From an uncultured Planctomycetota bacterium (lineage in GTDB: Bacteria > Planctomycetota > Planctomycetia > Isosphaerales > Isosphaeraceae): a stretch of DNA of 64,000 bases. Shown piece by piece: positions 43,648-60,737 of the stretch (position 1 is its first letter; each line of letters opens with the position of its first letter). The stretch is from positions 1,280,001-1,344,000 of the forward strand of contig CAWGMQ010000010.1 in the NCBI GenBank assembly GCA_963823665.1. The letters are read 5' to 3'. The notes under the pieces are model-generated. The model was not told the DNA's origin. It was given only the letters and a program-made list of their open reading frames with translations, and ran no database searches. The translations under genes and the position numbers were made by a program.

Positions 43648-44196
43648 TCAGTCGCGCGTGAGCGTGACCGTATACGCCAACACGGTCAATTGCCCTGTGG
43701 AAATGCTGACCGTTCCATAAGCCTGCAAGCTCCCCGATGCCTTCGCGAAACGGCCGGAGCCGCCTGCGACGGTTCCGCTCCAGGAGAACGCGTAGCCCGG
43801 CCCGCTCTCGTAAATCGCCCCGGTGAATTGAATATCGAGCTTGGCGCCGCTCGAGTCGACAAGAGTCCCGGTTCCGTTCACCAGGTCGTATCCGACGATC
43901 GCCCCATTCTCGAGCGCAGCCCTGTATCGGGACTTGCCGTTGAAAGTGCCCGTTCCGAGAGGTGCCTCCGGACCCGCCGCCAAGAACTTGTCTGTTCCCT
44001 GGCCAGGTTTCCCCGCCTGGACCATTTGACCTTCGAGCGATCCGTAGACCTGATGGATCCCGGTCGCTTTTGCGACCCGCTTGAGCTCCGCCGCCGGCCG
44101 ATCGGCAACTGCAATGGCGCTCATCAGGTCGCGTGATTCAAGGGTCTCGACCCGCAAAGCTTGATGGCGACACGGCTTCCGCTTGTGGAGCGACAT
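43648..44196 (-). CDS. Small planctomycete extracellular beta-rich protein
   Basis: Leader LRVETLESRDLMS; GGSGRFAKASG motif; GGAGG RBS. Confidence 0.7.
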   Translation of the reverse strand: MSLHKRKPCRHQALRVETLESRDLMSAIAVADRPAAELKRVAKATGIHQVYGSLEGQMVQAGKPGQGTDKFLAAGPEAPLGTGTFNGKSRYRAALENGAIVGYDLVNGTGTLVDSSGAKLDIQFTGAIYESGPGYAFSWSGTVAGGSGRFAKASGSLQAYGTVSISTGQLTVLAYTVTLTRD

Positions 44197-45514
44197 CGAT
44201 CGACCCTCCAGATTGGTCGTTCCGCGGTCGGGGCAACGGGACCGCCGCAAAAGATACGCACTCTTGTGCCGATGCTACCTCGTCTTGCGACGATACCATT
44301 TGCAGCACTTGAACTTGCGTCGAATCGTCCGCTCCGTTTTCCCGGGTTAAGGGAGCAATTCGGGTAGCACCCTCGGTTCCGGTCGCCGCTAGGGCTTCTG
44401 CTTCCGGCCGCGGCTTGGGAGCCAGGTCCGGAAGTGCCTGCACAGCACCGTCGATATCGAACCTGGACGCTTTGGCGTAGATACCGATGGTCAGCTTCGG
44501 GTCAGAGTGCCGGGCAAGCACCTGGCAAGTCTTTACCGACGCTCCGGACGCGACGATATACGAGATGTAGCAACCCCGCAAGCTGTGAAAATCAACCACC
44601 CCGGAATCGGTCTCGTAGGGAATGCTGGCAGCTTCCAGGTCGATCCGCAGCATTTCGGCCGTCCGATTCGTCAACGTCCCGAAGATCGCCTCTCCTGGTG
44701 CCTTCTGGGCCAGCCACGGGCGAACTTGATCGGCCAGAGCTTGCGCCAACGGCTGCACAGCTTCCTGTCCGTTCTTCGTGTAAGCAGCCCGGCAGCGAAC
44801 GGTAGGAGGCGACGCGACAAGTTTGAAGTCCTCGGGTGTCAGGGATCGCAGTTCATCGGCTCTGAACCCGGTTCCGAGTGCCAAGCTGTACAGCACGGCG
44901 CGCTCAGGGCCTTCGATACCTCGGAAGATTGGCCCGCGCTCCGCTGCCCGCACCACCCGTGCGGCTTCCTCTGGAGTCATAGCCCGGCGAACCCGCCGCC
45001 GGTCGCCCTCCGAACTCGTGGTGGCGAGGTGTGCAAGGTGGTGATCTCGAGCCCGTCCATCCTTCCAGAGCCATCGGCTGAACGCCTTGACCGAGCGGAT
45101 GTAGTGATTGATGGTTTCGGTACTTAGCCCTTCACTACGAAGTACCACGGTCGCGTCAAGGGCCTTCGAGAGCGACAAGTCAGATATCCGCCGGCTCTTG
45201 GTCAGCTCGAGCATCCGGCTGACTTGCGTCGTCGTCGTGAGCGCGTGTCCGCTGTTGCTGCCTTTGGCTGCCAGGTATCGCCCATAATCCGCGGCGTGCT
45301 CCGCCAGGGGCTTGGCCTCGTGCTTCTGGTAGGCAAGATCCCGCGGGTCGATCTGTCCGTTCTTGATCTTGCGGGCTTCCGTCTCGAGCTTGACCGCCAG
45401 CTCTTGTGACGCTCGCTTGTCGGTGTAGCCCTTTTTCTTCCGCCGGTCGCCGTTGGCGTCGAAGTAAAGAATCGTGTAGCAGTCTGCGCCCTTGGCCTTG
45501 AAAACCGATGCCAT
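44138..45514 (-). CDS. int: Tyrosine integrase; the ORF reads through the left att site
   Basis: Catalytic set GFRADE, TKNG, FHSLR, ARHS, IGIY; LAATGTEG tail. Confidence 0.95.
   Translation of the reverse strand: MASVFKAKGADCYTILYFDANGDRRKKKGYTDKRASQELAVKLETEARKIKNGQIDPRDLAYQKHEAKPLAEHAADYGRYLAAKGSNSGHALTTTTQVSRMLELTKSRRISDLSLSKALDATVVLRSEGLSTETINHYIRSVKAFSRWLWKDGRARDHHLAHLATTSSEGDRRRVRRAMTPEEAARVVRAAERGPIFRGIEGPERAVLYSLALGTGFRADELRSLTPEDFKLVASPPTVRCRAAYTKNGQEAVQPLAQALADQVRPWLAQKAPGEAIFGTLTNRTAEMLRIDLEAASIPYETDSGVVDFHSLRGCYISYIVASGASVKTCQVLARHSDPKLTIGIYAKASRFDIDGAVQALPDLAPKPRPEAEALAATGTEGATRIAPLTRENGADDSTQVQVLQMVSSQDEVASAQECVSFAAVPLPRPRNDQSGGSIDVAPQAEAVSPSSFAGRDP
44253..44270. repeat. Left att core
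   Basis: gatacgcactcttgtgcc versus gatacgcattccagtgcc at 60139-60156. Confidence 0.65.
44350..44370. promoter_or_regulatory. Candidate integrase arm-type sites (left)
   Basis: agggagcaattcgggtagcac; a matching tandem motif occurs at 59970-59989. Confidence 0.55.
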
Positions 45515-45515
45515 G

Positions 45516-45719
45516 TCACTTCGCCTTTCTCGTGGTTGTGATCCGCAGGCCCAGTAATTCGGCCAGCTTGTCAAGATTCGCCAGCGATAGCCCAGCTTGC
45601 CCGTTGACGAATCGAGACATCGACGCCCCGTCAATGCGCGTCCGCCGGCAGATTTCGTAGTGCGTCAAACCTGATTGCTTGACCGCTTCCCGGATTTGGT
45701 CAGTCAACGTATCGCTCAT
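45516..45719 (-). CDS. XRE-family HTH regulator
   Basis: SGLTHYEICRRTRIDGASMSRFVNG..LSLANLDKLAELLGL; ends 1 nt before the int start. Confidence 0.85.
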   Translation of the reverse strand: MSDTLTDQIREAVKQSGLTHYEICRRTRIDGASMSRFVNGQAGLSLANLDKLAELLGLRITTTRKAK

Positions 45720-46298
45720 CTCAGCACCATCCACATCGCGCCAGCCACTCCCACCAGTAGCGACAACAGCGTCAGGTCAACCCCCACGTCGATGATTGCC
45801 AGGGTTGCACACTTCAGAATTCGCATTTCCGCCCCCTCTCGTTTCGTTATTCTCACTGCCATGATGGAAGTCTATGCTTTGCTTGTTTGAAAATCAACGG
45901 TGCAGCGATGGAATTCCGCCCGATTTTTCGGACTCCTTCCAGATCGGTTAGAATGTGCACGTGATTATACTATCATACATAGTGAGCGTACACGTGTACT
46001 CCCCCGTAAACGGGCATTTCTTGCCACTAAGTGCACACCATTTCGCCACCCCCTTAGAGCGCAAGGGGGTCGCGCAATTGGCTTGGCATCCGCCCTCCAA
46101 TCGGCGAAACTGACCACCATGAAAGCGCTCAAAGGGTCGGCGGTTTTGCTGCCATCGTCGGCAGTATGATCTTCTACGCGTGGCTGCGCCGCGGCATCCG
46201 TGGCTCTGGCTTGGGATTTTCGCCCCGGCGCCGCAGGTAAAGCGCCCGCCTCAACCAGCTCGAGCGCGGGCACCTCGACCCTTGCTTTTCTAAGGCAC

Positions 46299-46790
46299 TC
46301 AATCGGCCGATGGATCGAACATCGATGCCGGCTTGCCCAGAGCCTTAGCAATCTTGGAAATCGTAGCGTGCGATGGGCTGTGCTTTCCGGTTTCAAGTCG
46401 GCTGATGTGGCTTTGAAGCAACCCCGCCTTCTGTGCAAGCTGCGCCTGCGTTAGACCGGCGGCTTGACGCTCCTTGGCGATCCGCTTGCTGATGAATGAA
46501 ATCCACGCCAAGAGCCCCGACTTCGGCGAATTCGGCTCCGATGGGCAGTCCATCTTTCGCGAACCTGATGGCGCCTGTTCCAGGATTTCGCGCATCGTCA
46601 CGACGCAGCTTTCAAATTCCTCAGGATCTGCGGTCGGCAGTACCTTGACCAACTCGAAAAGATCGTCCCTGTCATTCTGGTTGAGACGCTGCACGCGATC
46701 CAACACGATCGCGACGGCCATCGTCAAAGCCTCATGGCTAAGATTGGACTGCGCAGAATCTAGTGGTCCGTGAAGCTCCTTGGTAGGCAT
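46299..46790 (-). CDS. XRE-HTH antitoxin (HigA-like)
   Basis: RQAAGLTQAQLAQKAGLLQSHISRLETGKHSP; lies downstream of the toxin. Confidence 0.8.
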   Translation of the reverse strand: MPTKELHGPLDSAQSNLSHEALTMAVAIVLDRVQRLNQNDRDDLFELVKVLPTADPEEFESCVVTMREILEQAPSGSRKMDCPSEPNSPKSGLLAWISFISKRIAKERQAAGLTQAQLAQKAGLLQSHISRLETGKHSPSHATISKIAKALGKPASMFDPSAD

Positions 46791-46845
46791 GCTATCCCTT
46801 CCGAATTCAATATAATCGAATAATCTTGCGTGGGGCTCGCGCGGG

Positions 46846-47259
46846 TCACGCCGCCGAATAGCCGCCATTTCGATAGTTTCTGGCCCTCCTTCGCATCCGA
46901 ATCTTCGCACCGTTCGGAGTCGGTCCGTCATTCTGTTTCTTGATCCCGCCCAACACGACGATGATGGTTCTGTGCTTGTCGAGCAGAAAGAATATGCGGA
47001 CGTTCATCCCTCCCAAGATACCGCCCTTGTCACGTAGCTCGAAGTAGTCTTCGATTGCACGGATGTCGGCGGTAACGCTATGTGAAGGATCATTTTCCGT
47101 AGCCAACTCCTTGAATTGGAGTGCCAAGTGGTGATATTGGGCTCGGTTCACGAATCCCATTACTTCGTGGTACCCCTCGTTGAGAATCCGGACGCTCCAC
47201 CGATAGCCAGGCGGCGGTCCGCCCCCCTGCGTCACGCCAACCTTGACCTCTTTCGCCAT
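46846..47259 (-). CDS. RelE/HigB-like (Gp49-type) toxin
   Basis: YFELRDKGG..NVRIFF..IIVVLGGIKKQ pattern; toxin-first gene order. Confidence 0.75.
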   Translation of the reverse strand: MAKEVKVGVTQGGGPPPGYRWSVRILNEGYHEVMGFVNRAQYHHLALQFKELATENDPSHSVTADIRAIEDYFELRDKGGILGGMNVRIFFLLDKHRTIIVVLGGIKKQNDGPTPNGAKIRMRRRARNYRNGGYSAA

Positions 47260-47292
47260 ATTAATCGTCCTTTATCCCCAGGCGCCTTGAGG

Positions 47293-47320
47293 ATTATACA
47301 ACAATCATAGTGCGCTTCAA
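47293..47320 (-). promoter_or_regulatory. Sigma-70-like promoter of the TA operon
   Basis: Minus strand TTGAAG-16 nt-TATAAT; ttatacaac occurs twice nearby (possible operator). Confidence 0.6.
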
Positions 47321-47753
47321 CAGTGTTCGCTACATATTATACAACGCAACGGTGCTACTCAAGATTCTCGCCTGTTCGTTGTGCGCCCTTGAATTCGAGC
47401 CCGATGGCGAGCCGCCTACCCCTTCTCGTGCCCCGTCACGTAAACCCCGGTCCGCGCGAGCTTCGATATCGGCGCGCTCTCGGTCGCCCGTCCAATCCCT
47501 CGACCGAAGCGCCGCGGGCTTCACAGCGAGGCGTCTAGGCGATGGAATCCACGTCATCGTCGCTTGCTCTTGGCTGCGTGCCGGAATGGTAACGGTTTCG
47601 CCGTTCCACAATCTGGGCAGACTGCCCGCGGCCCGTTGTCGCTGGCCCGGATCACAGTCACCGCCCCGCACTGGCACGGCGACCCGGAATCGCGCCGCGG
47701 GTCCACCGTCCCTGTCGCCCTCTGGCCGCTCCGGCGTTTCCCCAGGATGATCT

Positions 47754-48032
47754 TCACCGCCGGCGCTCCCATCCCCGAATCCAAAAGCAAACTGCCAGGT
47801 TTATGAGGCACACCGCCGCGCTTCCGATGAAAAACGTCCACGCGATCGGTCCCTGTCCGTTGCGCTGTTGCAGCCAGAGCCCCGCCAGTGCCATTGCCAT
47901 TGAAGCCGTTGACGTCATTTCAAGCACCAATCCAATCCGGTCGCTCCGGCCCGCGGTTTCGGGCAGCGCTTCGACCAGTTCGTCCACTTTCGCCTGGCTG
48001 TTGCTCTCTGAACTGGTTTCGATAATCCGCAT
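47754..48032 (-). CDS. Small two-TM membrane protein
   Basis: Two hydrophobic helices and a basic C-terminus; GAGGAGG RBS. Confidence 0.55.
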   Translation of the reverse strand: MRIIETSSESNSQAKVDELVEALPETAGRSDRIGLVLEMTSTASMAMALAGLWLQQRNGQGPIAWTFFIGSAAVCLINLAVCFWIRGWERRR

Positions 48033-48064
48033 GGAAAGCACCTCCTCGTGGTTGTGAACAAACC

Positions 48065-48364
48065 TCAGTCTGGAATCATCCCAGGATATGGCGGGCATGC
48101 CACCGGCTCCGTGGGGGCATCGCACTCCCCGCCCCCGCACCGTTGGCATTTCTTCACCACCGGCGTAGGCAGTCCGAGCGCCGCGGCCGCTTCCTGCACC
48201 TCGGCATCCGTGGTCGTGATTTCGCCCTTCGCTCCGTGCCACTGCTTGACGAACAATGCCGCGTAAGCAGCCTGGCTCCAATGGTCGCCCAGCTCGTGGA
48301 CGAGTCGCTGAAAGTGCGGCTGATGCGCGACTGCCTTTTCGATTTCAGGTAGCGTGATCGTCAT
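48065..48364 (-). CDS. Hypothetical protein with C-terminal Cys cluster
   Basis: CQRCGGGEC; ATGA overlap with the upstream gene. Confidence 0.6.
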   Translation of the reverse strand: MTITLPEIEKAVAHQPHFQRLVHELGDHWSQAAYAALFVKQWHGAKGEITTTDAEVQEAAAALGLPTPVVKKCQRCGGGECDAPTEPVACPPYPGMIPD

Positions 48365-48762
48365 GATTCAACCCTCTCAAACCTGCCGATTGGGCAACGC
48401 TCGGTTGAGGCCCATAACTTCAGAGACCCGCAGCCACAAATTCGACATCGTTGCGAATCGGCGTTGTAATGCTCGCATGCCTGGCATAACGCTAAACGTT
48501 GCTCATGGATTTCTGGCGAGACTTTGACTGCATGGCCAGTCAGAACAGCACCCGCCACTCGAGCGGCTGCGCCCAGAGCGTTTACGGCCATCTGCGCCAT
48601 GGTCGGAAACTCCTGCGGTGCACCCGTGGCGATCTCGAGAACGATTTCCCGATAGCGACCGCGCTGCCATTCGTCCGGATTCTCATCCGAGCAAAGCCAG
48701 CGATAACGCTCGTGTTTTGTTTTTCCGACCACGATGTCTAGGGCTTCGGGTAGTGTCATCAT
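48361..48762 (-). CDS. DUF6171-like Cys-rich protein
   Basis: RLALCQACEHY..RCRICGC..LKLW...CPIGRF; ATGA-coupled start. Confidence 0.65.
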   Translation of the reverse strand: MMTLPEALDIVVGKTKHERYRWLCSDENPDEWQRGRYREIVLEIATGAPQEFPTMAQMAVNALGAAARVAGAVLTGHAVKVSPEIHEQRLALCQACEHYNADSQRCRICGCGSLKLWASTERCPIGRFERVES

Positions 48763-49583
48763 TGGGTCACCGTGACGCCAATAGTCGGTCCCGTGCAATT
48801 CCCATACACCGTGCAGAAACCACCGTCTCCAGCACCATTGGCGCAGCCGCTGCCAATCAAAAAACTTCCGGTTTCGTTTACTGGGTAGCAGGAGCTTTGT
48901 TCCGGCCCCACCCCGGTCATATTGGTGGATATCTCGCTGCTGAAACTCGAGCCGCTCGTATCGGGGCACCCGTTCGAATCGGTTGGGTAATTGTGCGGAC
49001 AATACACGGACGCTCTATCAATGCTGGCGCTTATGCAGGGATTGTAGCTGTACTGTAATTCCACCGTTCCGCCCACGCATCCGCATGCCGCGCCATAGGT
49101 GTAATTGATGCTGCCGATGTAATTCAACGAGCTTCCCGTACCAACGATACTTAATGTTCCGTAGGGGTAAAGTGTGACTGCTCCGACAACGGCGTCGGTA
49201 AGTGTGAGTTGATCGGGGTACATTAACAGAAGGGCTTTGTTTGGTGACGCTGTGCTCCCTGTTACGGTAATGTGCTGTGTCGTCGGAGTCGTGAGATAGC
49301 CAGACGGCGCCGACATCGAAAAGTAATATGTGCCCGTGCTTGACACTTCCCAAACAAACTGGCCGCTCGAGTTAGTCGTCCCTGACGCAACGACGGTACC
49401 GCCTGAATTGTTTTGCTGGACAGTTATCGTGATCCCTGAGAATCCGCATATCTTTGTGCTGTCACACCACCATACCTGAACGGTGTGATTCGCACCGCAC
49501 CCACAACACGTCCCAATCGACCAGGCGCCGTAGGCGGCATAGAGTAGGCAGACGAGACCAATGATCAACAGGTAGACCATCAT
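48759..49583 (-). CDS. Cys/Gly/Ser/Thr-rich membrane-anchored or secreted protein
   Basis: N-terminal TM, TCCGCG, prealbumin-like GTTNSSGQF..GTYYFSMSAPSGY, many Cys; visibly lower GC. Confidence 0.7.
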   Translation of the reverse strand: MMVYLLIIGLVCLLYAAYGAWSIGTCCGCGANHTVQVWWCDSTKICGFSGITITVQQNNSGGTVVASGTTNSSGQFVWEVSSTGTYYFSMSAPSGYLTTPTTQHITVTGSTASPNKALLLMYPDQLTLTDAVVGAVTLYPYGTLSIVGTGSSLNYIGSINYTYGAACGCVGGTVELQYSYNPCISASIDRASVYCPHNYPTDSNGCPDTSGSSFSSEISTNMTGVGPEQSSCYPVNETGSFLIGSGCANGAGDGGFCTVYGNCTGPTIGVTVTQ

Positions 49584-49801
49584 CGCCCCTGCTGCTCCTG
49601 CTGGCCAGTCTGGTAGATGCCAGCGCCCTTCACCTGATCGGTCGGCACCACGAGAACGTTGCCGGCCTTCAGTTCCACGAGACAGAGAATCGGGTGATCG
49701 GGTCCGCGGTCAAGAATTCCGAGCCAGAGCCCCGGCCCCTTGTCGGTGACCTCGACTGACCGCGGCGTGTTGAAGATGCCGTGTTGCGTGATCACTTCCA
49801 T
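49580..49801 (-). CDS. Hypothetical protein
   Basis: GAGG RBS; overlaps the next start. Confidence 0.55.
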   Translation of the reverse strand: MEVITQHGIFNTPRSVEVTDKGPGLWLGILDRGPDHPILCLVELKAGNVLVVPTDQVKGAGIYQTGQQEQQGR

Positions 49802-49827
49802 ACCTCAAATCCGGCCCGCCGTTCATT

Positions 49828-50088
49828 TCATTCCGATTCAAGCATATCCCTGACGTCTCCGATCAACGCGAGCGCTTCGGCGAGCACCGACTCTGCTTCC
49901 GTCGGACCCTCGTTCAGCCTCCGGCGGAGACGGTCGTTCTCAGCCTTCAGTGTCTCGTTTTCCGAAATGAGCTGGTTAATTGCAACCAGCGCCTTGCCCG
50001 GCTGCGTCGCGATTGCCCGAAACATCTCCTTGATCTCTCGCTCGCGCGACTTGCTCACGATGTCGGTCATCTTGGCGGGGATCACCAA
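49828..50088 (-). CDS. Small coiled-coil protein
   Basis: LISENETLKAENDRLRRRL; coupled to the upstream stop. Confidence 0.55.
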   Translation of the reverse strand: MVIPAKMTDIVSKSREREIKEMFRAIATQPGKALVAINQLISENETLKAENDRLRRRLNEGPTEAESVLAEALALIGDVRDMLESE

Positions 50089-50564
50089 TGTCCTCCTTCT
50101 CGCTCCCGCTGCCGCGCTGCGGCATCTTCTGCATAAGCCGCTTTCCGCTCGCGGTGTTCGACTGCTGAGTCCACCTTGTTCTGCGTGATCAAATAGCCAT
50201 AGATCGCTTCGAGCCTGGCTGTATCTCGTCTGAGCTCCGCAACGGACATGTTGAGCATCCCGGCAATCTTCCTGTCGAGCGCGTCAGTCCCCGCGATTTC
50301 GCCCGCTGCAAGCGCTCGTGCGATTGCTTGATCCGAGCCGGGGGTAACAATGCCCGCCCGGTCTCGCATGCGATCAAAGCGAGCTTTCGTTGCAGCCCTC
50401 TGGAGATTTACTTCGTATGTCGCGATTGCCTGTTTTTTCACCGGCTCAAGCGAGGTCAGAAGCGAGGCGACTTCGGCCATTGCTTCCGTTCGTTTCTGCT
50501 CAGCCACTTCCCGCGCGATGGTCATCATCTGCGCCGGAGTGAGTGCCGCCGTTCGATAGCTCAT
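50082..50564 (-). CDS. Helical hypothetical protein
   Basis: GGAGG RBS; ATGA overlap; operon position downstream of the capsid gene. Confidence 0.6.
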   Translation of the reverse strand: MSYRTAALTPAQMMTIAREVAEQKRTEAMAEVASLLTSLEPVKKQAIATYEVNLQRAATKARFDRMRDRAGIVTPGSDQAIARALAAGEIAGTDALDRKIAGMLNMSVAELRRDTARLEAIYGYLITQNKVDSAVEHRERKAAYAEDAAARQREREGGHW

Positions 50565-50743
50565 TTCCCCCTCCGTTGTGACTGGCGTAGAAAGGCCCCC
50601 AATGGCCCGATGGATTCCACGGTGCTATCGCTGGCCTCTTGACGCTCTTGCTCGAGCCGATGACGCTTCTCAGCTTCGCGCCGAGCCCAGCGCCTGTTTT
50701 CCTTCGGCCGCGTGTCAATTGCCCGGCAGAATTTGTTGTCCAT
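50561..50743 (-). CDS. Small basic hypothetical protein
   Basis: GAGG RBS right after the capsid stop. Confidence 0.5.
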   Translation of the reverse strand: MDNKFCRAIDTRPKENRRWARREAEKRHRLEQERQEASDSTVESIGPLGAFLRQSQRRGK

Positions 50744-50752
50744 TGGATCACC

Positions 50753-51976
50753 TCAACGCTGGGCAATCGTGACTGCCCACCCGACTGTTGAACCATCCGT
50801 CGTGGTAAGCGTGCTTGGCCAGATGCTGCGCCCATCCCCTCTAAGCTTGAGCCGCACCGCGACCTCGTCAGATAGGAAAAAGACGTCCTCCGAGTAGGAT
50901 CGCTCCATCACACCCTCGGGTAGCGCGATGATTCCAGTGTGCCCCTCATCGCGCGGCAGACTGATGTCGAACGACAGAGTGCTAAGATCGTTCTTCGTCA
51001 CCCTGCGAACACATAAGTGATATTGTGACCAGTCCGCCAAGACGAGATCCGCCGGAGTCCCAATGGCGGAGCAATTTTCGTTCACAATGCATGGCCTTCC
51101 CTTGATCAAAGGAAATTCATTCCCCGCCACCCCCTGCGGAAGGTAGATCGCTGATGGCCAATTCGCTGCCGACGCTACTTCATCGATGCTGCCCAGAGTC
51201 GCGTCCGTGCAAGACCAGATCGCGTTCCGCTTGCACGGCCCGTACAAACTTTTCCACATATTTGTGATATTGGTTTCGCTTATGGTGCCGCTGCTTTGCC
51301 CGCTGTCCTTTGCGATCTGCACAACCCCGGCCGCGGGCAGTCCGCTGCCTGGCACCACCACGCCGGAAGGCCCCGCGATAATCCCTTGGATCATGGCTTG
51401 CTCAAGCTGGAAACGGATTTCCGACTCGGCCGAATAATCCAAGAGAGGCATAATCAAATCCGTGTCCGCGAACAGGTCGCGAGACATGGGCGGAAATTGC
51501 ACGATCAATCGCGAGCAGGAAAAATTCACCCGCGCTGCCGATGGTTGCGATTGGAACTTCGATTGCGAAAGATCGGCCGTTTCTGACGTCGCCCAAACCC
51601 CCAGCACACCACCCCACCGGCTCCCGGCCGCTCTCGAAGATTCCCCGTAGACTGGCAACACAAAATCGCGCTGATTCACGGTGATGATTCGACAGCGCGC
51701 GAGCGGACCGTCAACCGTCCGGGCTTTGTCCCAAACTGCCGTTGCCCACTCGGGCTTGAGCGTGAAACCGTAGTCCTGTCCCTGATACCCGACACCGGTT
51801 CTGATTTGCAGGTCCTCAAGGTTCATCAAGCGTTCGGTCGAATCGAACGTCAGCAATGAACGCGCGGCCGTCGCTGCGAAAAAGCCGAATGGCGTAACGT
51901 CGTCCGCTGCGATCGGACGCAACATGGCTCGCGACTTGCGCGGTTTCGGCATTTCGATCGTAGTGCCGTGCAACAT
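50753..51976 (-). CDS. HK97-fold major capsid protein
   Basis: GFTLKPEW, ESSRAAGSRWGGV, LIKGRPCI..E.CSAIGTPADLVLADWSQY, SEDVFFLSDEVAVRLKLRGDG. Confidence 0.88.
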   Translation of the reverse strand: MLHGTTIEMPKPRKSRAMLRPIAADDVTPFGFFAATAARSLLTFDSTERLMNLEDLQIRTGVGYQGQDYGFTLKPEWATAVWDKARTVDGPLARCRIITVNQRDFVLPVYGESSRAAGSRWGGVLGVWATSETADLSQSKFQSQPSAARVNFSCSRLIVQFPPMSRDLFADTDLIMPLLDYSAESEIRFQLEQAMIQGIIAGPSGVVVPGSGLPAAGVVQIAKDSGQSSGTISETNITNMWKSLYGPCKRNAIWSCTDATLGSIDEVASAANWPSAIYLPQGVAGNEFPLIKGRPCIVNENCSAIGTPADLVLADWSQYHLCVRRVTKNDLSTLSFDISLPRDEGHTGIIALPEGVMERSYSEDVFFLSDEVAVRLKLRGDGRSIWPSTLTTTDGSTVGWAVTIAQR

Positions 51977-51978
51977 CG

Positions 51979-52413
51979 TTATTCGCCCTCCGGAAAGCGT
52001 CGCGTGAATTCTGAAATGAGCTCGTGAACGGGCGTTGGCGCGGAGCGTTCAACCAAAATTGGCGGAGCGCCGAGCCTCTGAAGTAGACCATCGGCATTCG
52101 CCGCGCGCTGCAATTCACATCTGAGCTCGTGCGCATCGCGGTGGTTGCCCGCGCGTTCGAGCCGGTCGATTTCGCGCCAGATCGGAGACGGCTTACCATG
52201 CGAGGCGAGCCGGTCGCCAATCGCTCTCTGACTGACGAAACAAGCGAACCCCTCGCGCACTCCGTTCAACTCGCCACCGCGCACAAGGCTTCGCACTTCG
52301 GCAACAGTCACGCCAAGAATCTCAGCCGCCTTGCAATCCGGCAGATACCCCCGCGACTGCATTTCGCGGTCGTGGGAATCTTCCTCCCAGTATGGCCCGA
52401 ATTTCCATCCCAT
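51979..52413 (-). CDS. Excisionase/MerR-like HTH protein
   Basis: KAAEILGVTVAEVRSLVRGGELNG. Confidence 0.65.
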   Translation of the reverse strand: MGWKFGPYWEEDSHDREMQSRGYLPDCKAAEILGVTVAEVRSLVRGGELNGVREGFACFVSQRAIGDRLASHGKPSPIWREIDRLERAGNHRDAHELRCELQRAANADGLLQRLGAPPILVERSAPTPVHELISEFTRRFPEGE

Positions 52414-52578
52414 GTAGCACCCCTTTCGATGGTCGAATACTAGAGCGAGCCGCGATATCGAATCAAGTGAAGGCGCGAGCAATTCCACTTAATGCTTATG
52501 GAATTTTTGGACACACGCGAGCCGTTTTCGCCGTGTTTTTCGTGGCTCGGATGTGTGATTCGTCCAGAAAATCGCCCC

Positions 52579-52827
52579 CTAAACTGGCGGATTATTGGAC
52601 GTTCCATCTCGTTCAGCGAGCAATTCGGCGAGCCGCCGGAAACGTTCGTCGGTCTTGAACGTCCCCGCGTTCAGCCAGTTATAGAGCGTCGATCGGCTGA
52701 TTCCCGCAGTGTCGGCAGCTTCGTTGATGCTCAAGCCGCGGCCGAATGCGAAACCGAGAAGCAACATCGTCTCGCCGTCGCAAGCCGATGGTCTGCCGCG
52801 TCTGTTTTTCGTTTTCGCTTGTGGCAT
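52579..52827 (-). CDS. Small HTH protein (terminase small-subunit-like N-terminus)
   Basis: RGRPS...GLSINEAADTAGISRSTLYNWL. Confidence 0.65.
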   Translation of the reverse strand: MPQAKTKNRRGRPSACDGETMLLLGFAFGRGLSINEAADTAGISRSTLYNWLNAGTFKTDERFRRLAELLAERDGTSNNPPV

Positions 52828-52839
52828 GGCGTCGCGCCC

Positions 52840-53181
52840 TTACATGATCTTCGTGAACATCGGATGGTCGTCATCGGCTTGCATGAACATCCGCCATCTA
52901 TACTCTGCTTCTATGGCCCTTATGAGCTTTCCCATAGCGTCGGGATCATCGATGGGTATACGTTCGGCTCGACTGTCACACTTGGCCCAGCACACGTCGC
53001 AGCACTCGCAGAAGCAAATGATTTGACCTTCTATCACTTTGCTCGAGCACTTCGCGACCGATCCGCAGACTGCGCAATAATCCTTTGCTGGTTTGACCGG
53101 CCGTGCCGGCGCGGGTTCGGGTTCGGGCGCACGCGGTTTAGGCGCCCCTTTGAGTCTGTGCCGCCATGTCAGGTTATTCAT
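52840..53181 (-). CDS. Cys-rich zinc-finger hypothetical protein
   Basis: CAVC..CFCECCDVC. Confidence 0.55.
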   Translation of the reverse strand: MNNLTWRHRLKGAPKPRAPEPEPAPARPVKPAKDYCAVCGSVAKCSSKVIEGQIICFCECCDVCWAKCDSRAERIPIDDPDAMGKLIRAIEAEYRWRMFMQADDDHPMFTKIM

Positions 53182-53184
53182 GGT

Positions 53185-54027
53185 TCAATCCTCATCCCAG
53201 AGTGAAGGGTCACGAAGGTTGCCCACCGCGGCGGGGTTGTGCCGGACGGCATAAGGGGGAATGAAACGCGGGTCTAGTTCGTCGTCGTCGTCGTTTTCTT
53301 GCTCGAGCTCGCGCTTACGCTCCGCCACCTTCTCGACCTCGAGCGCTCTGGCTTCCCAGGGTTGCAGATTCGTTGTGTCGGCCGTGATTGTCATGGCCAT
53401 CCATCGTTGACGTCCAAGCCAGAGCGCGAGGCTCACACTCATAACGCAGTCGTCATGATCCGAATTGAACGCTTCGGCAGAAGTGTTGCCGGTTTTGGCG
53501 CTCACCCGGATTTTAAAATCCCTCAATTCTTTTTTGAGCAATCTAGCGTGCTCCTGATGCTTTCCGTTCCGCATCGGGCATATCTTTACCCGACGATTGC
53601 CGAGTGCTTCGGCCAATGCGCTCACGAGCTCAACCTTGGCGACGTTCCACATGCGCCGGCCGCGTGGCGCCGATGTTGCGCCCCCGGTTATGTTGATCCC
53701 GTAGACTCGGATGTGCTCGTATGGCGCGAATGCGGTAACGCACTGCTCAAACACCGCCGTTCCACAGCCGGACATATCGATCACCACAATGGGAGCCGGT
53801 CGAATGTCGCTTCTGGTTGCGATGCGTACCAGGTCTTTTACCACGGCGCCGTACTCTGTTTTTAACGGCCAGCGACGTAGGCCCACGATCTGAAACGAAT
53901 AGATGGAATTCCCCCGGCTATCGCGTTCGGGAAGGCCCTGCGCGTCCACGGCCAGGCTGCGAGCCATTACAGACAACGCGGAAAAGTCCCGGAACTGGCC
54001 TAAGTCCAGCGTGACAAAGTTGTCCAC
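53185..54027 (-). CDS. Terminase large subunit, stand-alone RNase H-like nuclease domain
   Basis: TLDLGQFRDFSA, VIDMSGCG, DHDDCVMSVSLA; own RBS (GAGGGG) and GTG start. Confidence 0.8.
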   Translation of the reverse strand: MDNFVTLDLGQFRDFSALSVMARSLAVDAQGLPERDSRGNSIYSFQIVGLRRWPLKTEYGAVVKDLVRIATRSDIRPAPIVVIDMSGCGTAVFEQCVTAFAPYEHIRVYGINITGGATSAPRGRRMWNVAKVELVSALAEALGNRRVKICPMRNGKHQEHARLLKKELRDFKIRVSAKTGNTSAEAFNSDHDDCVMSVSLALWLGRQRWMAMTITADTTNLQPWEARALEVEKVAERKRELEQENDDDDELDPRFIPPYAVRHNPAAVGNLRDPSLWDED

Positions 54028-54029
54028 GA

Positions 54030-54797
54030 TTAGAGCCCCTCGAGTGCTGTGAGTAATGGCATGCCAGGCGGATACTCGGTTAAAGCCTCAATCGCATCAT
54101 CACCTATTAATTGGTCGCCGTCCTCTATAAAAGCGTTTTCATGTTCCTGTCTGTACAGTGCAGGCCCCAGGATCTTGAGCTCATCGTCCAGGAATCCCGG
54201 CTTTACACGATGCGGATAGTCGACGCGTCGGGCGGAGATGCGTTCCCAGGTCTGCTCCTGATCTTCCCAGCATGCGTAGAAGAACCCCCGCCGGCCCGCG
54301 GGTGTGGAGAGCAGGATTAGGTCGCCGTCTGTCTCCGCCAGCATCGGACGCACCGCAGCCAGCATGCCCTCATCTATACGTGATGCTTCGTCTAATATAA
54401 CCAAGTGTGGAGTGTACCCGCGTGCAGTAGCCGGATCGCCTGGCAAGGCAACCAGCTTGCTACCGTTGGCGAAGTGCAGTTCAGTTCTGAGTTGCTTGAC
54501 CAGCTCAACGGGCTTGGTGCGCTCGTAATACTGAACAGTGCGGTCAAACAGCAACAGCGATTGCCTTTCCCCGATGCTAGTCAGGAGACATTCCGAGCCC
54601 GCGGTGAAGCAAACACGGTGCAAGGCTTTCACCGCAGATACGCTGGTTTTCCCAAGTTGCCGGCCGCAAAGCATAAGCAATCGTTTGCTTGTCGACTGCA
54701 AAGCTTGGCGCTGCCATAAATCTGGTTCAAGCCCCGTCGCCGCGCGAAACAAGTATGTCGGGTCCAGTGCCGCCTTCAACAATGCTTTCCTGTCCAT
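54030..54797 (-). CDS. Terminase large subunit, stand-alone ATPase domain
   Basis: PDLWQ, Walker A CGRQLGKT, ARG, Walker B VILDE, coupling motif LSTP, YRQE. Confidence 0.88.
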   Translation of the reverse strand: MDRKALLKAALDPTYLFRAATGLEPDLWQRQALQSTSKRLLMLCGRQLGKTSVSAVKALHRVCFTAGSECLLTSIGERQSLLLFDRTVQYYERTKPVELVKQLRTELHFANGSKLVALPGDPATARGYTPHLVILDEASRIDEGMLAAVRPMLAETDGDLILLSTPAGRRGFFYACWEDQEQTWERISARRVDYPHRVKPGFLDDELKILGPALYRQEHENAFIEDGDQLIGDDAIEALTEYPPGMPLLTALEGL

Positions 54798-55389
54798 CGG
54801 TGCTACCCTCCGAGTGCTCGAGTTGCTCCATCTGGTCGATAACCGCGGCGAGGCGATAACGGTCTTCTGGTGTCTTCACAGCGTCAAGGAGGGCCGCGCC
54901 TTGCAACCCGAACATCGCGACGCTGATGTTCTGGGTAGACCCGCCGATCTTGTTGATGGTCTTGTGCTCTCGCAGTTTGCCCCAGTAGCGATCCATCAAC
55001 AGTTGGATGGCCTTCAGCCGGTCGCCGTGCGTCTCGCCCTCGAGAGCGATATGGGCGAGCTCTTTGACCGCGTCGGCGAGCAGGGTTGGGTGCTCGTCAT
55101 CGATCAGTTGCTTGAACCGGCGTTTGATCCTGACACCTGCTGCGATCCGCGCCGGATCGGGGGTCGCGCAGCTATTGCCCACAGCGAACATGCCGTTCTC
55201 ACCCCGGCCTTCACCCGTGCCGGCCCAGCTCGAGGCGTCCAGAGCGGTCTGCGGGTCCTGCTGTTCGGAGAACACCCGCGGCGCAGGGCGGGCGGGCTTG
55301 GCTGGCTTGGCGCCCTTGACCTTGCGCGGGCCCCGGTACCCTCGAGCGGTACCATGCCAGCGAGGCAACGGCGAGGTGTCAGTGCTCAT
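54727..55389 (-). CDS. Putative terminase small subunit
   Basis: RGENGMFAVGN and LKAIQLLMDRYWGK motifs; directly upstream of the terminase ATPase. Confidence 0.6.
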   Translation of the reverse strand: MSTDTSPLPRWHGTARGYRGPRKVKGAKPAKPARPAPRVFSEQQDPQTALDASSWAGTGEGRGENGMFAVGNSCATPDPARIAAGVRIKRRFKQLIDDEHPTLLADAVKELAHIALEGETHGDRLKAIQLLMDRYWGKLREHKTINKIGGSTQNISVAMFGLQGAALLDAVKTPEDRYRLAAVIDQMEQLEHSEGSTDGQESIVEGGTGPDILVSRGDGA

Positions 55390-55404
55390 GGTGGTTGTCC
55401 CCGG

Positions 55405-55761
55405 TTAGTTCCTGGCGCACAGCATGGCCGTTCCTTGTGCTATCCGACGCGCTTCCTCGACCTTCTCCCGAATCTGGTCGATGCGTTGTTCCTGCGCAGC
55501 GAGCGCTTGCTCCCGCGCGACAACGCGACGTTCGTTCTCAGTCTGGGCCCGTATCAGCTCAGTCGAGCCGCACGCGATGGCGCGAACCTCGAGCCCCAGG
55601 GCCCGTACATCGGCCGCCACTCTTTGCACATCCGCAGCCAGTTCGGCTGTCTCGTGCTCAACGTCGGCCAAAGCACACTCAGCCGCGTAGAGTGCCTCAG
55701 ACGCCCTGCGCTGGTCATCTCTCAGGTCGATCAACACGTCTGCCCAGTTCACTGCCGTCAT
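55405..55761 (-). CDS. Coiled-coil hypothetical protein
   Basis: Ala/Glu-rich heptads; GAGAGGG RBS. Confidence 0.6.
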   Translation of the reverse strand: MTAVNWADVLIDLRDDQRRASEALYAAECALADVEHETAELAADVQRVAADVRALGLEVRAIACGSTELIRAQTENERRVVAREQALAAQEQRIDQIREKVEEARRIAQGTAMLCARN

Positions 55762-55928
55762 GGTGCCCTCTCTCGTTGGGTAAGGGGTCATTTATGGGAA
55801 ACCGGTCCAAGTGCTACTTGGGATGCTGCCGTATAACCGGAATCGTCACAAGTGTCACTGCGTGAATTACTTGCGTCTGTCGGCATCGGATTCTCTCTCC
55901 GATGTTGATTGGTTATCTGTACGATCGA

Positions 55929-56201
55929 TCAGTCATGCCGCTCGCGGATCGCGCTGGCCAGGTCGTGAATCGCGCTGGCGATGGTTGTCGCCGCTTCCTT
56001 GATGGCCTCGCCATGAGCTTCCATTGCGTTCGGGCGAGTCCTCGGATCGGAGCGGAATGAAACACCGAACCAGACAGCCCGTGCCAGGTCATCAAGCGTG
56101 TCGACGATGTTTGCGGCCTCGCCGTTGGCGTCGCTCACATTCGGCGAGGTAAGCGCCGCGGCGAGGGTGTCTGCCAGTCTGTCACTCTTGGATGCGTTCA
56201 T
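55929..56201 (-). CDS. Hypothetical protein
   Basis: AAGGAG RBS; SPNVSDANGEAANIVD. Confidence 0.6.
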   Translation of the reverse strand: MNASKSDRLADTLAAALTSPNVSDANGEAANIVDTLDDLARAVWFGVSFRSDPRTRPNAMEAHGEAIKEAATTIASAIHDLASAIRERHD

Positions 56202-56639
56202 GCGTTAAACTCCTTGCATGCATGACGGTATGGGCCGACGATGGTGAGCCCGGCTGAACGGCCAGAGACTGGCCTTCCACGCTGATCTGCTCAAAAGCCT
56301 GCTGCTCATGGTCAGGCCACGGGATACCATCTGCCTCGAGGCGATTGGCGAGTTCACCCCATCGTTGCCGGCGCTCAATCGGCCATCCAGCGAGATCAGA
56401 AGGTCTCGACCACTTCAAGCCTACAAAACCTACGGAACCGGTTTTGTCTGGTTTCGTAGGTAGCGGGGGGTATCTATCTATAAGAATTTCACTGGCGCAG
56501 AAATACACTCACTCACACCATCATTGATGTACTCTTTAGGGTCTGAATTTTCTGTGTACCTATGGGGTGGATTGCCTACGAAACCTACAAAAGCATCCAC
56601 TGGCTTGATCTGCTGCTTGAATGCATTCAAGTATTTCAT
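56182..56639 (-). CDS. Hypothetical protein(s) downstream of the replication gene, probably one frameshifted gene
   Basis: ATGA-coupled start MKYLNAF; FVGFVG/TKPDK repeats; C-terminal WGELANRLEADG in the second frame. Confidence 0.45.
56420..56592. repeat. Iteron-like 9-mer array (candidate replication origin)
   Basis: cctac(a/g)aaa-type pairs at 56420-56439 and 56575-56592, an inverted pair at 56440-56460, and AT-rich sequence between. Confidence 0.55.
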
Positions 56640-58588
56640 GCTTGCGACCACACTTCCTTGGATGGCAGAACCGGATTGATCCACACTTTCTTGGATGGTC
56701 TGCCACCGAACGCGCTCTCTGACGGAACCTCGACCACCTTCACCCATCCGCGGTCTTCAAGGATGCCGATGGCGGTTTCGACGTCATCGACCATCCGCAG
56801 GCCTGACCATCCCTTCTGCGCGACCTCCCGCGGAGTGAACGGATTTGGAAGCGATCCCTTGATCCGCTCGGATAGCGCGACCGCGATCGAGATGTCGCCG
56901 TCCGCGCAGGCCATGTACACCCGCCTGGCGTGCGCCTCGAGCAGGTCACACCATGCCGCGGCCGCTTGAGCTGCCTCGAGGGACACCGGTCCTATCTCCC
57001 ATGCCCTGCATGTCTCGACCAAATGGAAGATCAGTGCCAGCGAGGCCATGAGCGAGCCATATTTCGATAGGTGGTTCTTCATCAGGTCTGAGAGAGCACC
57101 ACCCCGGAGTCGCTGTTGCAGTTCTGTATACCACTGGTTGAAGAACGCTTGAGCGTCATCGGCGAAATTGACGTAGGCCAAGCCGCTATCCTGATCGACC
57201 TTGCATCCCTTATCCGCTGCGTTCATCTGGTCGATCGCCTTGAAGACGTCATAGGCTTCATTCTTCGCCGCGGTATCTGGCCACTGGTCGACATGCACGT
57301 AATCGTCCGGCGGATCCGGATACACCATCACCTGGAAGCGGGGAACGAAACCGTCCGCTTCCTCTCCACTGACGGTGCGTTTCATGTACTGCGCGAGCGG
57401 TCCGGGCTGGATGGTTCCGAGCACCGCCAGACACGCCGCTTCAATGTGCGTCGTGCCGCGCTGGATTCGATCGAATGTGAAAGAGCCGTTTCCATTCCAG
57501 CACTCAAGCAGGAAACCCCGGTCCGATTGGTGACCTTCCCGCTCGAGGCTCTTGAGCAGTCCAAGCAGTTCGTCCCGAAAGACCGTCAACCCGTTCGGAT
57601 TCTCCGCCATGAGCTCGCCAAGCTTCTCGACCGTGAAATCGTTCACGAGATACCGCCGGCACTTCGGCTGATCTTCCTGACTGGTGGCCATCGCATCGAC
57701 CGCGAGCCGCTTTAGTTCGTCCTCCGTCGTCCCCTCCACCTTCGCCGCTTTCTTCAGCGTGCTCTTGGCTGCGTCCTTGCGTGCCGCGGCAACAAGCTGG
57801 CGAGCGGTGTAATCGTTCATCTGTTGGGCGAAGGCGTCCATCGCATCGGCCACGAGTCGCTTGAGCGGACGCATGACGGCCTCGACTGCCGGGGTCTTCA
57901 AGAATCCGGGTGGCCCGACGATGATTCCCCAGAGATTCACCACCACCACCCAGTCATCGTAGCGCTTCGGTCTTATCGCCACCTTCCGGCCGATCACCCC
58001 GCTGAGAGCGACAATCAGCGTCGCCGCAACGTACTCAAACGGAAAACAGCCACGCGTTGCGATATCGCGCAGCCACCCGCGGAAAACCTCTGGCACCATC
58101 TCCGGCACGATGGCAGGGACCGGCTCGAGGTTTGCCGTTATCGGGCGGGGTGGCAGAAGGAAGATAGGGCTTCGAGCCGAAACCTCTTTATCCCTCCATT
58201 TGGTCCGCTTGGCCGCTTCATTCACGAAGTCGTCGCCGTCCACATACTCGCCATCGGCGACCTTCTCGTTAAACCACGCTTTGAGTTGATCGCCGTTGCC
58301 AGCGATTCCGAACGCTTCGCGCAGGTTCAAAGTCCCCACCTGGCTGGCGAAGTAATGGTTGCCGTTCCCTTCGCACCACACCGCCGCCGCGGTCGCCGAT
58401 TCTGGTTCGCTATAGGCAAAGATGATCCGCCGCCGGTCCGCGAACTTCGCAAGCTGGCCCTTCGCCGTGAAGACCTCGATCGCCGGAATGCCGAGCTCCC
58501 GCACCGCGGCTGCAACCCGCAGTTCAATGCACCCGAAAACAATGTCGCCGGGCTTGCCATTCGGGACATGGCCGTTTGATTCGCTCAT
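56636..58588 (-). CDS. DUF3987/YfjI-family replication protein (helicase-like)
   Basis: NLWGIIVGPPGFLKTP, NDFTVEKL, FRDEL, DRIQRG, GTIQPG, DGFVPRF. Confidence 0.88.
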   Translation of the reverse strand: MSESNGHVPNGKPGDIVFGCIELRVAAAVRELGIPAIEVFTAKGQLAKFADRRRIIFAYSEPESATAAAVWCEGNGNHYFASQVGTLNLREAFGIAGNGDQLKAWFNEKVADGEYVDGDDFVNEAAKRTKWRDKEVSARSPIFLLPPRPITANLEPVPAIVPEMVPEVFRGWLRDIATRGCFPFEYVAATLIVALSGVIGRKVAIRPKRYDDWVVVVNLWGIIVGPPGFLKTPAVEAVMRPLKRLVADAMDAFAQQMNDYTARQLVAAARKDAAKSTLKKAAKVEGTTEDELKRLAVDAMATSQEDQPKCRRYLVNDFTVEKLGELMAENPNGLTVFRDELLGLLKSLEREGHQSDRGFLLECWNGNGSFTFDRIQRGTTHIEAACLAVLGTIQPGPLAQYMKRTVSGEEADGFVPRFQVMVYPDPPDDYVHVDQWPDTAAKNEAYDVFKAIDQMNAADKGCKVDQDSGLAYVNFADDAQAFFNQWYTELQQRLRGGALSDLMKNHLSKYGSLMASLALIFHLVETCRAWEIGPVSLEAAQAAAAWCDLLEAHARRVYMACADGDISIAVALSERIKGSLPNPFTPREVAQKGWSGLRMVDDVETAIGILEDRGWVKVVEVPSESAFGGRPSKKVWINPVLPSKEVWSQA

Positions 58589-58791
58589 GGGCCCGCCCTC
58601 CGTGGTTGCCGATGGTCGATTACCTCAGTTGGGTTTCCGCAGACCGGACATTCCCAAATCTGCACCTGTCCGCGCACCCCCCGGAGTCGAAGCCGCTCCC
58701 AACATCCGCAGTAGCTTTGTGGCTCCTCGAGTGCACCGTCATCGTCGGTAGGAAATGCCAGGTCACGCTGGCCGCGCAGGGGCTCGCTCAT
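58585..58791 (-). CDS. Small zinc-ribbon protein
   Basis: YCGC..WECPVCG; ATGA overlaps at both ends. Confidence 0.55.
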   Translation of the reverse strand: MSEPLRGQRDLAFPTDDDGALEEPQSYCGCWERLRLRGVRGQVQIWECPVCGNPTEVIDHRQPRRAGP

Positions 58792-59083
58792 GATGGCTCG
58801 CCCCTTTCCTGTTCGGCCCACTCGCGAACAATGCGCGGTGACCATAGGCGCGCCGGCCGACACTTCTATCCGGCCGCGGAAACTCGCCGGTCGATATCCG
58901 CTCCTCAATCAGCCGCCTGGATAGCGGGATGACGGCGAGAATCTGATCCCAACCCCAGAGAAGCATTTCCGAAGGGGGGATTGATCGAACTTTGGGCAAT
59001 TTGCTAGGATCGGGTTCCTGGATAACCTGATCGTTCGCGAGGCCCGGAGTCGCCAGCTCCGGGTCCTTGCTTGCGCACTGCAC
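58788..59083 (-). CDS. AlpA-family regulator, frameshift near 58850
   Basis: LSRRLIEERISTGEFPRPD..GRR, continuing as WSPRIVREWAEQ in the adjacent frame. Confidence 0.7.
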
Positions 59084-59086
59084 CGA

Positions 59087-59293
59087 TCAGGCCCCCTTGC
59101 TCATGGGAGCCATGGCGCGGGCGATATCGCCCGCGGAATAGCGTGGTGGCACACCCGGCTGCAAATCGATGGCGACGGCGCCGATCGCAGCGAGGCGATA
59201 GAGCTTTGTAGGGCTTAGTCCCGGATGGCGCCGAGTTGCTTCGGCTGCCGAAATGAAATCGGCTTGGGCGGGTTCAAGTGTCGCTGTCGACAT
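59087..59293 (-). CDS. Small excisionase-like HTH protein
   Basis: FISAAEATRRHPGLSPTKLYRLA..PRYSAGDI. Confidence 0.6.
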   Translation of the reverse strand: MSTATLEPAQADFISAAEATRRHPGLSPTKLYRLAAIGAVAIDLQPGVPPRYSAGDIARAMAPMSKGA

Positions 59294-59453
59294 TGCGGTT
59301 TCCCGGAAGGATGCATAGGCGCGATTCACCAGAGCACCTGGTTGAAACCAGTGCTCACGAGTGAGTCGACTTCCTATGCGGTCCGTCTCCGGCCGCAGTC
59401 AGACTCTGACATTCAGTCTTCGATCATAGAATGACTACTAAGCCATTTCAAGA

Positions 59454-59861
59454 TCACATCGGTTGTTTCGGCCAGTACGGCAATTTATCTCGCAAATGCC
59501 ATATCGCGTGGCGGATTTCAAACTGTGGATTATCTGGTCGGCATGAATGGCATGTCGCGTCCGCTCTTTCCATCAGCCAATTGAAGGCGCCCTCGAAGTC
59601 CTCATCGGAGAATTGCCGAGCCGTCCGCCCACTCGTCTGGTTCAAGGTCGGATTGCGCTTGTACCTCATCAACCAAATCGAAATTGTGCGGTACGCTTTC
59701 GCAAAACGCGGTTCATGCTTCTGGAAGTCCTCGTCGCTGGAAGATTGAAGCAGGCCCATCAAGACCCACCAGCTCAATCCCCAGGGTCGCCGCTTCACTC
59801 TACCGAGCAATCGTGACGCTTCGTCTTGAATCAGTGCCTGCACCCGCTTCCGATCGATCAT
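59454..59861 (-). CDS. Hypothetical protein
   Basis: 135-aa ORF, GGAG RBS, co-oriented with the element. Confidence 0.55.
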   Translation of the reverse strand: MIDRKRVQALIQDEASRLLGRVKRRPWGLSWWVLMGLLQSSSDEDFQKHEPRFAKAYRTISIWLMRYKRNPTLNQTSGRTARQFSDEDFEGAFNWLMERADATCHSCRPDNPQFEIRHAIWHLRDKLPYWPKQPM

Positions 59862-59867
59862 CTCAGC

Positions 59868-59978
59868 TCACTCCGTTTTGGCCGCGTTCACCACCGCCAG
59901 AATCGCCCGACGCTGCTCCGCAGACAGCCGTCCCCAGGATTCCCGCACCAGCTCGAAGTCCGAATCGTCAGGGAGCAT
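59868..59978 (-). CDS. 36-aa helical ORF, in frame with the right att core
   Basis: MLPDDSDFELVRESWGRLSAEQRRAILAVVNAAKTE; the frame is open from 60146. Confidence 0.6.
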   Translation of the reverse strand: MLPDDSDFELVRESWGRLSAEQRRAILAVVNAAKTE

Positions 59979-59989
59979 TTTGGGAGCAC
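59970..59989. promoter_or_regulatory. Candidate integrase arm-type sites (right)
   Basis: agggagcattttgggagcac. Confidence 0.55.
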
Positions 59990-60138
59990 TTGAGCCACGC
60001 TCCGACGCGTTTCCATGCGTGTCTGTGCGTGATAATACCGCACTGCCAGGCTCGGAAACAACGGAGAATGAAGGCTTCCCGCGTGTCCCCGCGTTTCCGT
60101 GCGCGTCAGTGCGTTCTGACGTGAAAACGTCAAGATCT

Positions 60139-60156
60139 GATACGCATTCCAGTGCC
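60139..60156. repeat. Right att core
   Basis: gatacgcattccagtgcc. Confidence 0.65.
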
Positions 60157-60159
60157 AGT

Positions 60160-60645: not shown

Positions 60646-60737
60646 GAAGCTTCTCGACGGCGTTCGGATCTCCCTGCTCGATCGCCGAAAACATCCGCGT
60701 GCCTTCGCTCAACAATTCGATACGCTGTTACTTCACC

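Follow-up and report, generated by a model that had tools for sequence, protein, structure and literature searches.

A planctomycete integrase gene that contains its own attachment site and is predicted to gain a conserved helical tail on excision

Self-modifying integrase genes have been described as rare in bacteria (PMC4701971). In the closest described case, phage Mx8, the phage attachment site (attP) lies in the 3′ part of the tyrosine integrase gene (int), the catalytic domain is intact in both states, and integration replaces a 112-residue C-terminus by 13 residues (PMC4701971, PMC6070905; these and the papers cited below are quoted from their accessible parts). The shortened, integrated Mx8 integrase (Int) is reported to be less active (PMC4701971). 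Here we describe a gene of comparable build in a phage-like element that lies in 64,000 nt of DNA from an uncultured Planctomycetota bacterium (contig CAWGMQ010000010.1, positions 1,280,001 to 1,344,000), hereafter called the window. We regard it as highly probable that the last quarter of this int contains the attachment site and that the gene is thereby split; recombination decides whether a tail domain from the far end of the element is joined to Int. The attP-split int is real, family-wide and a variant of a known principle; its anatomy is firm, while its function is a testable guess.

In Mx8, as in the window, the crossover falls within int downstream of the catalytic tyrosine, and both states are open with different C-termini; Mx8 is also the system that works like the window Int (PMC6070905, PMC4383910). 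Mx8 is a closer precedent than the mycobacteriophage repressors invoked in an earlier note on this DNA, which had been made from the sequence alone. After a tRNA-like stretch, the reading frame of Mx8 Int likewise carries on into an additional C-terminal segment. The integrase of Myxococcus phage Mx9 reportedly resembles that of Mx8. In a BLASTP comparison with a natural Int-tail fusion, Mx8 Int showed no similarity (best E 1.6), and tblastn with the fusion P0238 gave no match in 50,697 phage records at E 1e-5; by these comparisons the planctomycete family is not detectably homologous to Mx8 Int. It differs from Mx8 in that one conserved hairpin recurs across the phylum, at many tRNA and non-tRNA targets and on two unrelated Int clades.

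Other known systems are further removed. In the SSV-type suicidal integrases (SSV1, pTN3, pT26-2) the att site also lies inside the integrase gene, which is split on integration (PMC8371274), but there the cut runs between Int(N) and the catalytic Int(C), so that the enzyme is inactivated, whereas here only an accessory tail is lost. Judging from its sequence, the window Int is not of this type, because all catalytic residues precede the core. In phage BPs, integration shortens a protein's C-terminus by means of an attP within the gene (PMC4557955); the split gene is a repressor and the lost part an ssrA-like degradation tag, whereas the window core lies in int, the helix-turn-helix (HTH) genes are wholly internal, and what is lost is a hairpin with a variable end. 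Streptococcal integrative and conjugative elements targeting rumA carry att within the integrase gene and alter its C-terminus (PMC4701971); their enzymes are serine recombinases, the target is protein-coding, and no such tail has been described for them. The accessible part of PMC13626063 holds nothing on a planctomycete split integrase, and no description of one was found in the literature searched, a scope outside which most subscription journals fall.

The 8-bp att core of the window element, GATACGCA, has exactly two copies in the window, one at each end of the element (Table 1). Since an 8-bp repeat could be due to chance, an unoccupied site was sought among 40 relatives, of which G001 is the sole genome of the same genus. 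In G001, the left host flank is 81% identical as far as the core and the right host flank follows directly (37/43 identical counted from the core). Because this empty site joins both host flanks at the 8-bp core, the crossover is placed there. It thus lies where the earlier note had proposed it and not elsewhere, the outcome that note had named as a refutation; of its bounds, 44138..60156, the right end is corrected to 60146. A repeat search with a 14-nt minimum misses this core, and a different 8-mer returned by an automatic end-pairing rule was rejected as wrong for the window. Around the core of the predicted attP, the inverted repeat TCTTG/CAAGA suggests a 6-bp overlap. The tandem GGGAGCA-N4-GGG(T)AGCAC motif, previously noticed inside both ends, occurs at those two places only in the window; relatives carry element-specific tandem repeats at corresponding positions, which on the lambda model are likely arm-type Int sites. 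Each integrated junction is spanned by a single contig (X4, 44073-44316; X2, 59913-60174).

The window contains no tRNA, and a tRNA target was rejected for this element. Its target is intergenic, between the CTP synthase gene and the host gene at 43648..44196, ~57 bp upstream of the latter's likely start, and the integrated int frame overlaps the first codons of that gene. The target also overlaps a minus-strand promoter-like spacing upstream of the host gene (TTGCTG-17 nt-TATC; 44240-44260, 60139-60170), which is kept in G001 (L008:1480-1530); integration parts the two boxes, and the host half then faces the tail end.

The Int frame passes the left core at codons 419-421 as TGC GTA TC (44260-44253) and terminates as ...FAGRDP, so that the core inside the integrase open reading frame (ORF) and the host-derived end, both read earlier from the letters, are borne out. 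The last 37 of the 458 residues come from host DNA and the first 421 are common to both forms. From the right core, 92 stop-free codons follow where about 90, running to 59868, had been counted by hand; computed joining predicts a circle-form Int of 510 residues. All catalytic residues (R218, K247, H310-R313, H336 and Y346) precede the core, and among 35 Int homologues R218, K247, R313, H336 and Y346 are invariant and H310 nearly so. In an AlphaFold2 model of the natural fusion P0071, the chain is ordered until about residue 370, the predicted local distance difference test (pLDDT) score is below 50 across most of 372-494, and the two tail helices have a pLDDT of ~80; the model thus shows a lambda-like three-domain enzyme followed by a tether of ~130 low-confidence residues. 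Foldseek with the Int model matched lambda and Brujita integrases. The N-terminal arm-binding domain, which is three-stranded, and the core-binding and catalytic domains are predicted to be complete before the core, and the tether between catalytic domain and tail is predicted to be disordered.

Of 733 Int homologues the best 120 were compared. The majority of these terminate in unrelated sequence, with many running visibly into a tRNA on either strand, and eight end in the conserved tail motif. Compared in this way, the integrated form has no conserved C-terminus but one read through from host DNA or a tRNA, and therefore the switch amounts to the gain or loss of one domain. The C-terminus exchange on excision that the earlier note had put forward consequently holds for the two in-frame forms but not as a swap of two domains.

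For the window element taken alone, an open frame to the tail is expected by chance with a probability of ~0.10-0.13, and one of the remaining two frames is likewise free of stops over most of its length; because of this chance level, the window frame by itself is weak evidence. We therefore turn to relatives, whose retention of the int/tail frame, a check proposed in the earlier note, shows that the open frame is not chance. Integrases were paired with an upstream same-strand tail, by position only, among the 150 matches listed. This gave 29 family pairs, of which the 24 with an exact att duplication of at least 14 nt were scored. In 19 of the 24 the int frame runs stop-free into the tail. 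These 19 elements use 12 target genes and both tRNA orientations, with core-to-tail distances of 81-206 nt; the 14 family elements measured are 7-18 kb long. The same tRNA is read in different frames by different elements, and the tail follows the frame each time. The nominal p of 5e-6 overstates the result, as kin are not independent. Left out of the count, for a duplication below 14 nt, were L065 and L086/087 (in frame), L072 (contig end), L083 (decayed) and L088/089 (probably mismatched ends), as were the four stretches L099-L102, in which no tail lies upstream. L125 was also set aside: in this integrase fragment the tail follows shortly after the catalytic domain, and the locus appears rearranged. 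Beyond the family, 20 tail matches were picked for long contigs, and eight of these loci could not be scored (four short contigs, one without a duplication, three with a duplication but without an integrase). In the other Planctomycetota families all 12 integrases running into the duplication are in frame with the tail. Three of the 12 belong to a second tyrosine-integrase clade, and the one of these that was compared has no BLASTP similarity to the window Int. Combined, 31 of 36 scorable elements are in frame, against one third expected.

The tail is predicted to be a conserved helical hairpin of ~30 residues, and the window tail modelled alone gave such a hairpin with a mean pLDDT of 90.5. 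A tail profile has 433 matches in 100 of 121 family genomes and matches 57 of 251 genomes sampled across the phylum; the tail is found in 10,808 protein clusters at 50% identity. In 36 tails, entropy by codon position is 0.77/0.54/1.28 and synonymous difference (pS, 0.55) exceeds non-synonymous difference (pN, 0.26). Because third codon positions vary most and pS exceeds pN, the tail is read as protein, and it is under protein-level selection. One Trp and one Leu are invariant, whereas the residues past the hairpin vary freely in length and sequence. Searches of Pfam, PHROGs and PDB sequences gave the tail no significant match, the plasmids searched held none, and the ESM Atlas yielded only unnamed clusters; the tail model had no Foldseek match.

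Fused genes of the predicted kind occur naturally. L050, a contig of 8,171 bp, carries a terminal repeat of 55 nt that falls within int, as for an assembled circle, and its int reads via a tRNA-Leu fragment into a tail. The fused 533-residue protein is P0238, recorded from an 8,146-bp contig and possibly from the same data. L050 is filed in an actinobacterial genome bin despite its planctomycete-family integrase and is probably mis-binned. L121 and L122, 91% identical, present the tRNA-terminated and the tail-fused form, respectively. Tandem arrays at one tRNA (L064, L098, L099, L089) recreate Int-tail junctions on the chromosome and may supply long Int while integrated.

How could such an arrangement work? 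The tether would be attP DNA (arm sites, core and tRNA fragment) kept stop-free, and the integrated end, as the arbitrary sequence there suggests, would be without function. The tail would be a protein-contact, or oligomerisation, module favouring integration. Integration would strip it off in one step, leaving a weaker or excision-biased enzyme and so stabilising the integrated state, as reported for Mx8; excision would restore the tail to Int. We give a probability of roughly 0.6 to the reading that the tail helps integration and that its loss stabilises the integrated state. It is favoured because an element newly entering a cell can produce no form but the long one, with which it has to integrate, and because the shortened Mx8 form is less active (PMC4701971). 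That the tail tunes integration against excision is likely; that it promotes integration by oligomerisation is our best guess. The tails vary past the hairpin and show no evident conserved ssrA-like end, so that a BPs-type stability switch is less likely.

A number of observations weigh against the split-gene design or the function proposed for it. The window tail is itself divergent, scoring 5.0 bits against a model built without it, a score as high being reached by 1 of 1,000 shuffles. The frame is broken in 5 of the 24 scored family elements. In four of these (L064, L075, L076 and L098) a frameshift lies between catalytic domain and core, and in three of the four the catalytic region is frameshifted too, a pattern consistent with read errors or decay. 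In L082, from the window's own genome, int is intact and the tail one base out of frame; L082 and L083, both of them further elements of that genome (G000:C8), are shifted at nearly the same spot, just past the arm repeat, which may be decay, read error or a frameshifting variant. L167 has a direct junction of int, transfer-messenger RNA and tail that is out of frame. Some natural fusions (L098, L099, L064) are tandem-element junctions, not circles. No excision joint of the window element was seen in seven read runs, which held thin-cover contigs only and are uninformative on absence. The structure of the tail model had no VIA match at Z ≥5. In favour of the contact role, as a lead only, its best-ranked structural neighbours include small oligomerisation hairpins, for example the TP901-1 CI dimerisation domain (Z 4.1, root-mean-square deviation 1.5 over 31); helical-hook oligomerisation domains (TP901-1 CI, CapH, CFAP410 C-terminal) at Z 3.4-4.3 were tied with unrelated hairpins. 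A complex prediction for two tail copies scored 0.32, the mark being 0.42, and speaks neither for nor against self-association. PMC6070905 words the Mx8 effect as changed specificity, not simply lower activity. Finally, the claim on tail function draws on sequence, models and analogy.

The same split gene could also act with the opposite sign, the tail inhibiting or destabilising Int, or recruiting a host protein that does so, and thereby blocking immediate re-integration. Phage lambda lowers Int when unintegrated via sib across attP, and the tail, a compact and conserved surface held by a flexible tether, could be an adaptor just as readily as an oligomer. In BPs, it is the long viral form of the attP-split repressor that undergoes degradation (PMC4557955). 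However, the freely varying residues past the hairpin are unlike a C-terminal degradation tag, and an incoming element would have to integrate with the very form that is inhibited. We consider an inhibitory tail unlikely.

More doubtful still is a free-standing tail: a mini-protein translated at the distal end of the integrated element and working in trans, with its fusion to Int either ancestral or secondary. The window tail does have an ATG, at 59978 and inside the arm-type repeat, from which the earlier note had allowed that the open frame might be chance; in 10 of 19 relatives a TTG or GTG lies in frame 18-20 codons ahead of the conserved Trp, within the arm repeat; the host TTGCTG-17-TATC spacing reads into the tail end; gene callers report thousands of such short ORFs; and in P0187 the same tail domain stands at the end of an XRE HTH protein. 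Yet a separate gene needs no frame with int, and the frame is what relatives keep, whereas an in-frame ATG is found in only 6 of the 19, at scattered positions. No Shine-Dalgarno-like word precedes the tail starts in these 19, although planctomycete genes may do without one anyway; the ORFs called on tails begin in unrelated host or tRNA sequence; and a promoter scan of the right end found no site. A chance open frame in GC-rich DNA, the conserved stretch being a DNA motif, is scarcely credible. In this DNA a stretch of 53 codons does stay open in 31-40% of cases, but the reading is already largely refuted by the frame tests and the most variable third codon positions, and fused genes occur naturally, among them that of the circular contig L050.

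We can suggest, at somewhat less than even odds, that in Planctomycetota the usual control of directionality has been replaced or supplemented by a portable hairpin in cis, placed beyond attP, a sensor of DNA state made by recombination and kept through target changes. If so, at least two unrelated tyrosine-integrase clades attach the hairpin to themselves only on the circle, and thousands of 'hypothetical proteins' beside planctomycete tRNA fragments are amputated integrase tails. In a large group of planctomycete elements the attP-split design is the rule and is accompanied by a conserved, as yet uncharacterised domain, and the question posed by Mx8, how a distal C-terminal piece sets activity or direction, becomes testable by comparison and mutagenesis. 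Genome-derived integrases of this group are the truncated form, which matters when mining integration tools, and the tail marks the far element end even where the target is not a tRNA and the core measures just 8 bp.

Table 1. Coordinates of the element, its ends and neighbouring genes in the window
Feature	Position	Strand	Remark
Host gene, planctomycete extracellular-motif protein	43648..44196	-	PF07595, below cut-off
Phage-like element	44253-60146 (core to core)		15,886 bp; 8-bp core duplication
Tyrosine integrase, integrated form	44138..45514	-	ATG 45514, 458 residues; PF00589 above cut-off
att core, int side	44253..44260		Inside int reading frame; basis: G001 empty site
TCTTG	44262..44266		Half of 5-bp inverted repeat predicted to flank core in attP; likely core-type Int site
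Tandem GGGAGCA-N4-GGG(T)AGCAC repeat	44351..44370		110 nt inward of left core, in int coding sequence; likely arm-type Int site
Small XRE-type HTH gene	45516..45734	-	Immediately before int; may be a regulator or directionality factor
Gp49/RelE-like gene and XRE HTH gene	46299..47259	-	Likely toxin-antitoxin pair; Gp49 below curated cut-off
Major capsid-like protein	50753..51976	-	Pfam Phage_capsid
Terminase large subunit	53185..54797	-	ATPase part 54030-54797 and adjacent ORF, probably nuclease part
DUF3987 helicase/primase-like replication gene	56636..58588	-	
Open frame from right core	59868..60146	-	92 codons; C-terminus of predicted circle-form Int
Conserved tail domain	59871..59978	-	Predicted two-helix hairpin, helices 5-17 and 20-35
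Matching tandem repeat	59971..59989		~150 nt inward of right core; includes tail-ORF ATG at 59978
Imperfect 25-nt repeats	60006..60114		A pair among them spaced 10 bp; between core and arm site; possible accessory-protein sites
CAAGA	60131..60135		Putative partner half of 5-bp inverted repeat around attP core
att core, tail side	60139..60146		Basis: G001 empty site

By its gene content the window element looks like a phage satellite or a reduced prophage. It resembles capsid-encoding satellites of the phage-inducible chromosomal island (PICI) type in its ~16 kb, terminal int, HTH regulators, helicase/primase, capsid and terminase; known here from genes alone, it differs from them in having no recognised portal or protease gene. 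This comparison concerns the whole element, not the integrase switch. No phage tail genes were found among its ORFs, and no close relative appeared among the viral contigs searched. The terminase large subunit (53185-54797) is two neighbouring genes, not one. Outside the right core, ~550 bp (60182-60730) hold remnants of Ser/Thr-kinase-like and ECF-sigma-like (extracytoplasmic function) genes; they are missing from the G001 empty site, which has ~150 other bases there, and represent a separate event.

The targets of the relatives are varied. L076 targets a selenocysteine tRNA, and in part of the family (L073, L078, L081, L121) the tRNA lies in sense behind int. Several integrases read into the 5′ half of a tRNA, and some elements seem to supply the 5′ part of the target tRNA together with a promoter. 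A related integrase, that of L094 (G078:C45:109800-112500), sits at a non-tRNA site of 16 bp and runs in frame into a DnaK-like host gene; the open frame is 1,793 residues long, and integration would create an Int-Hsp70 fusion.

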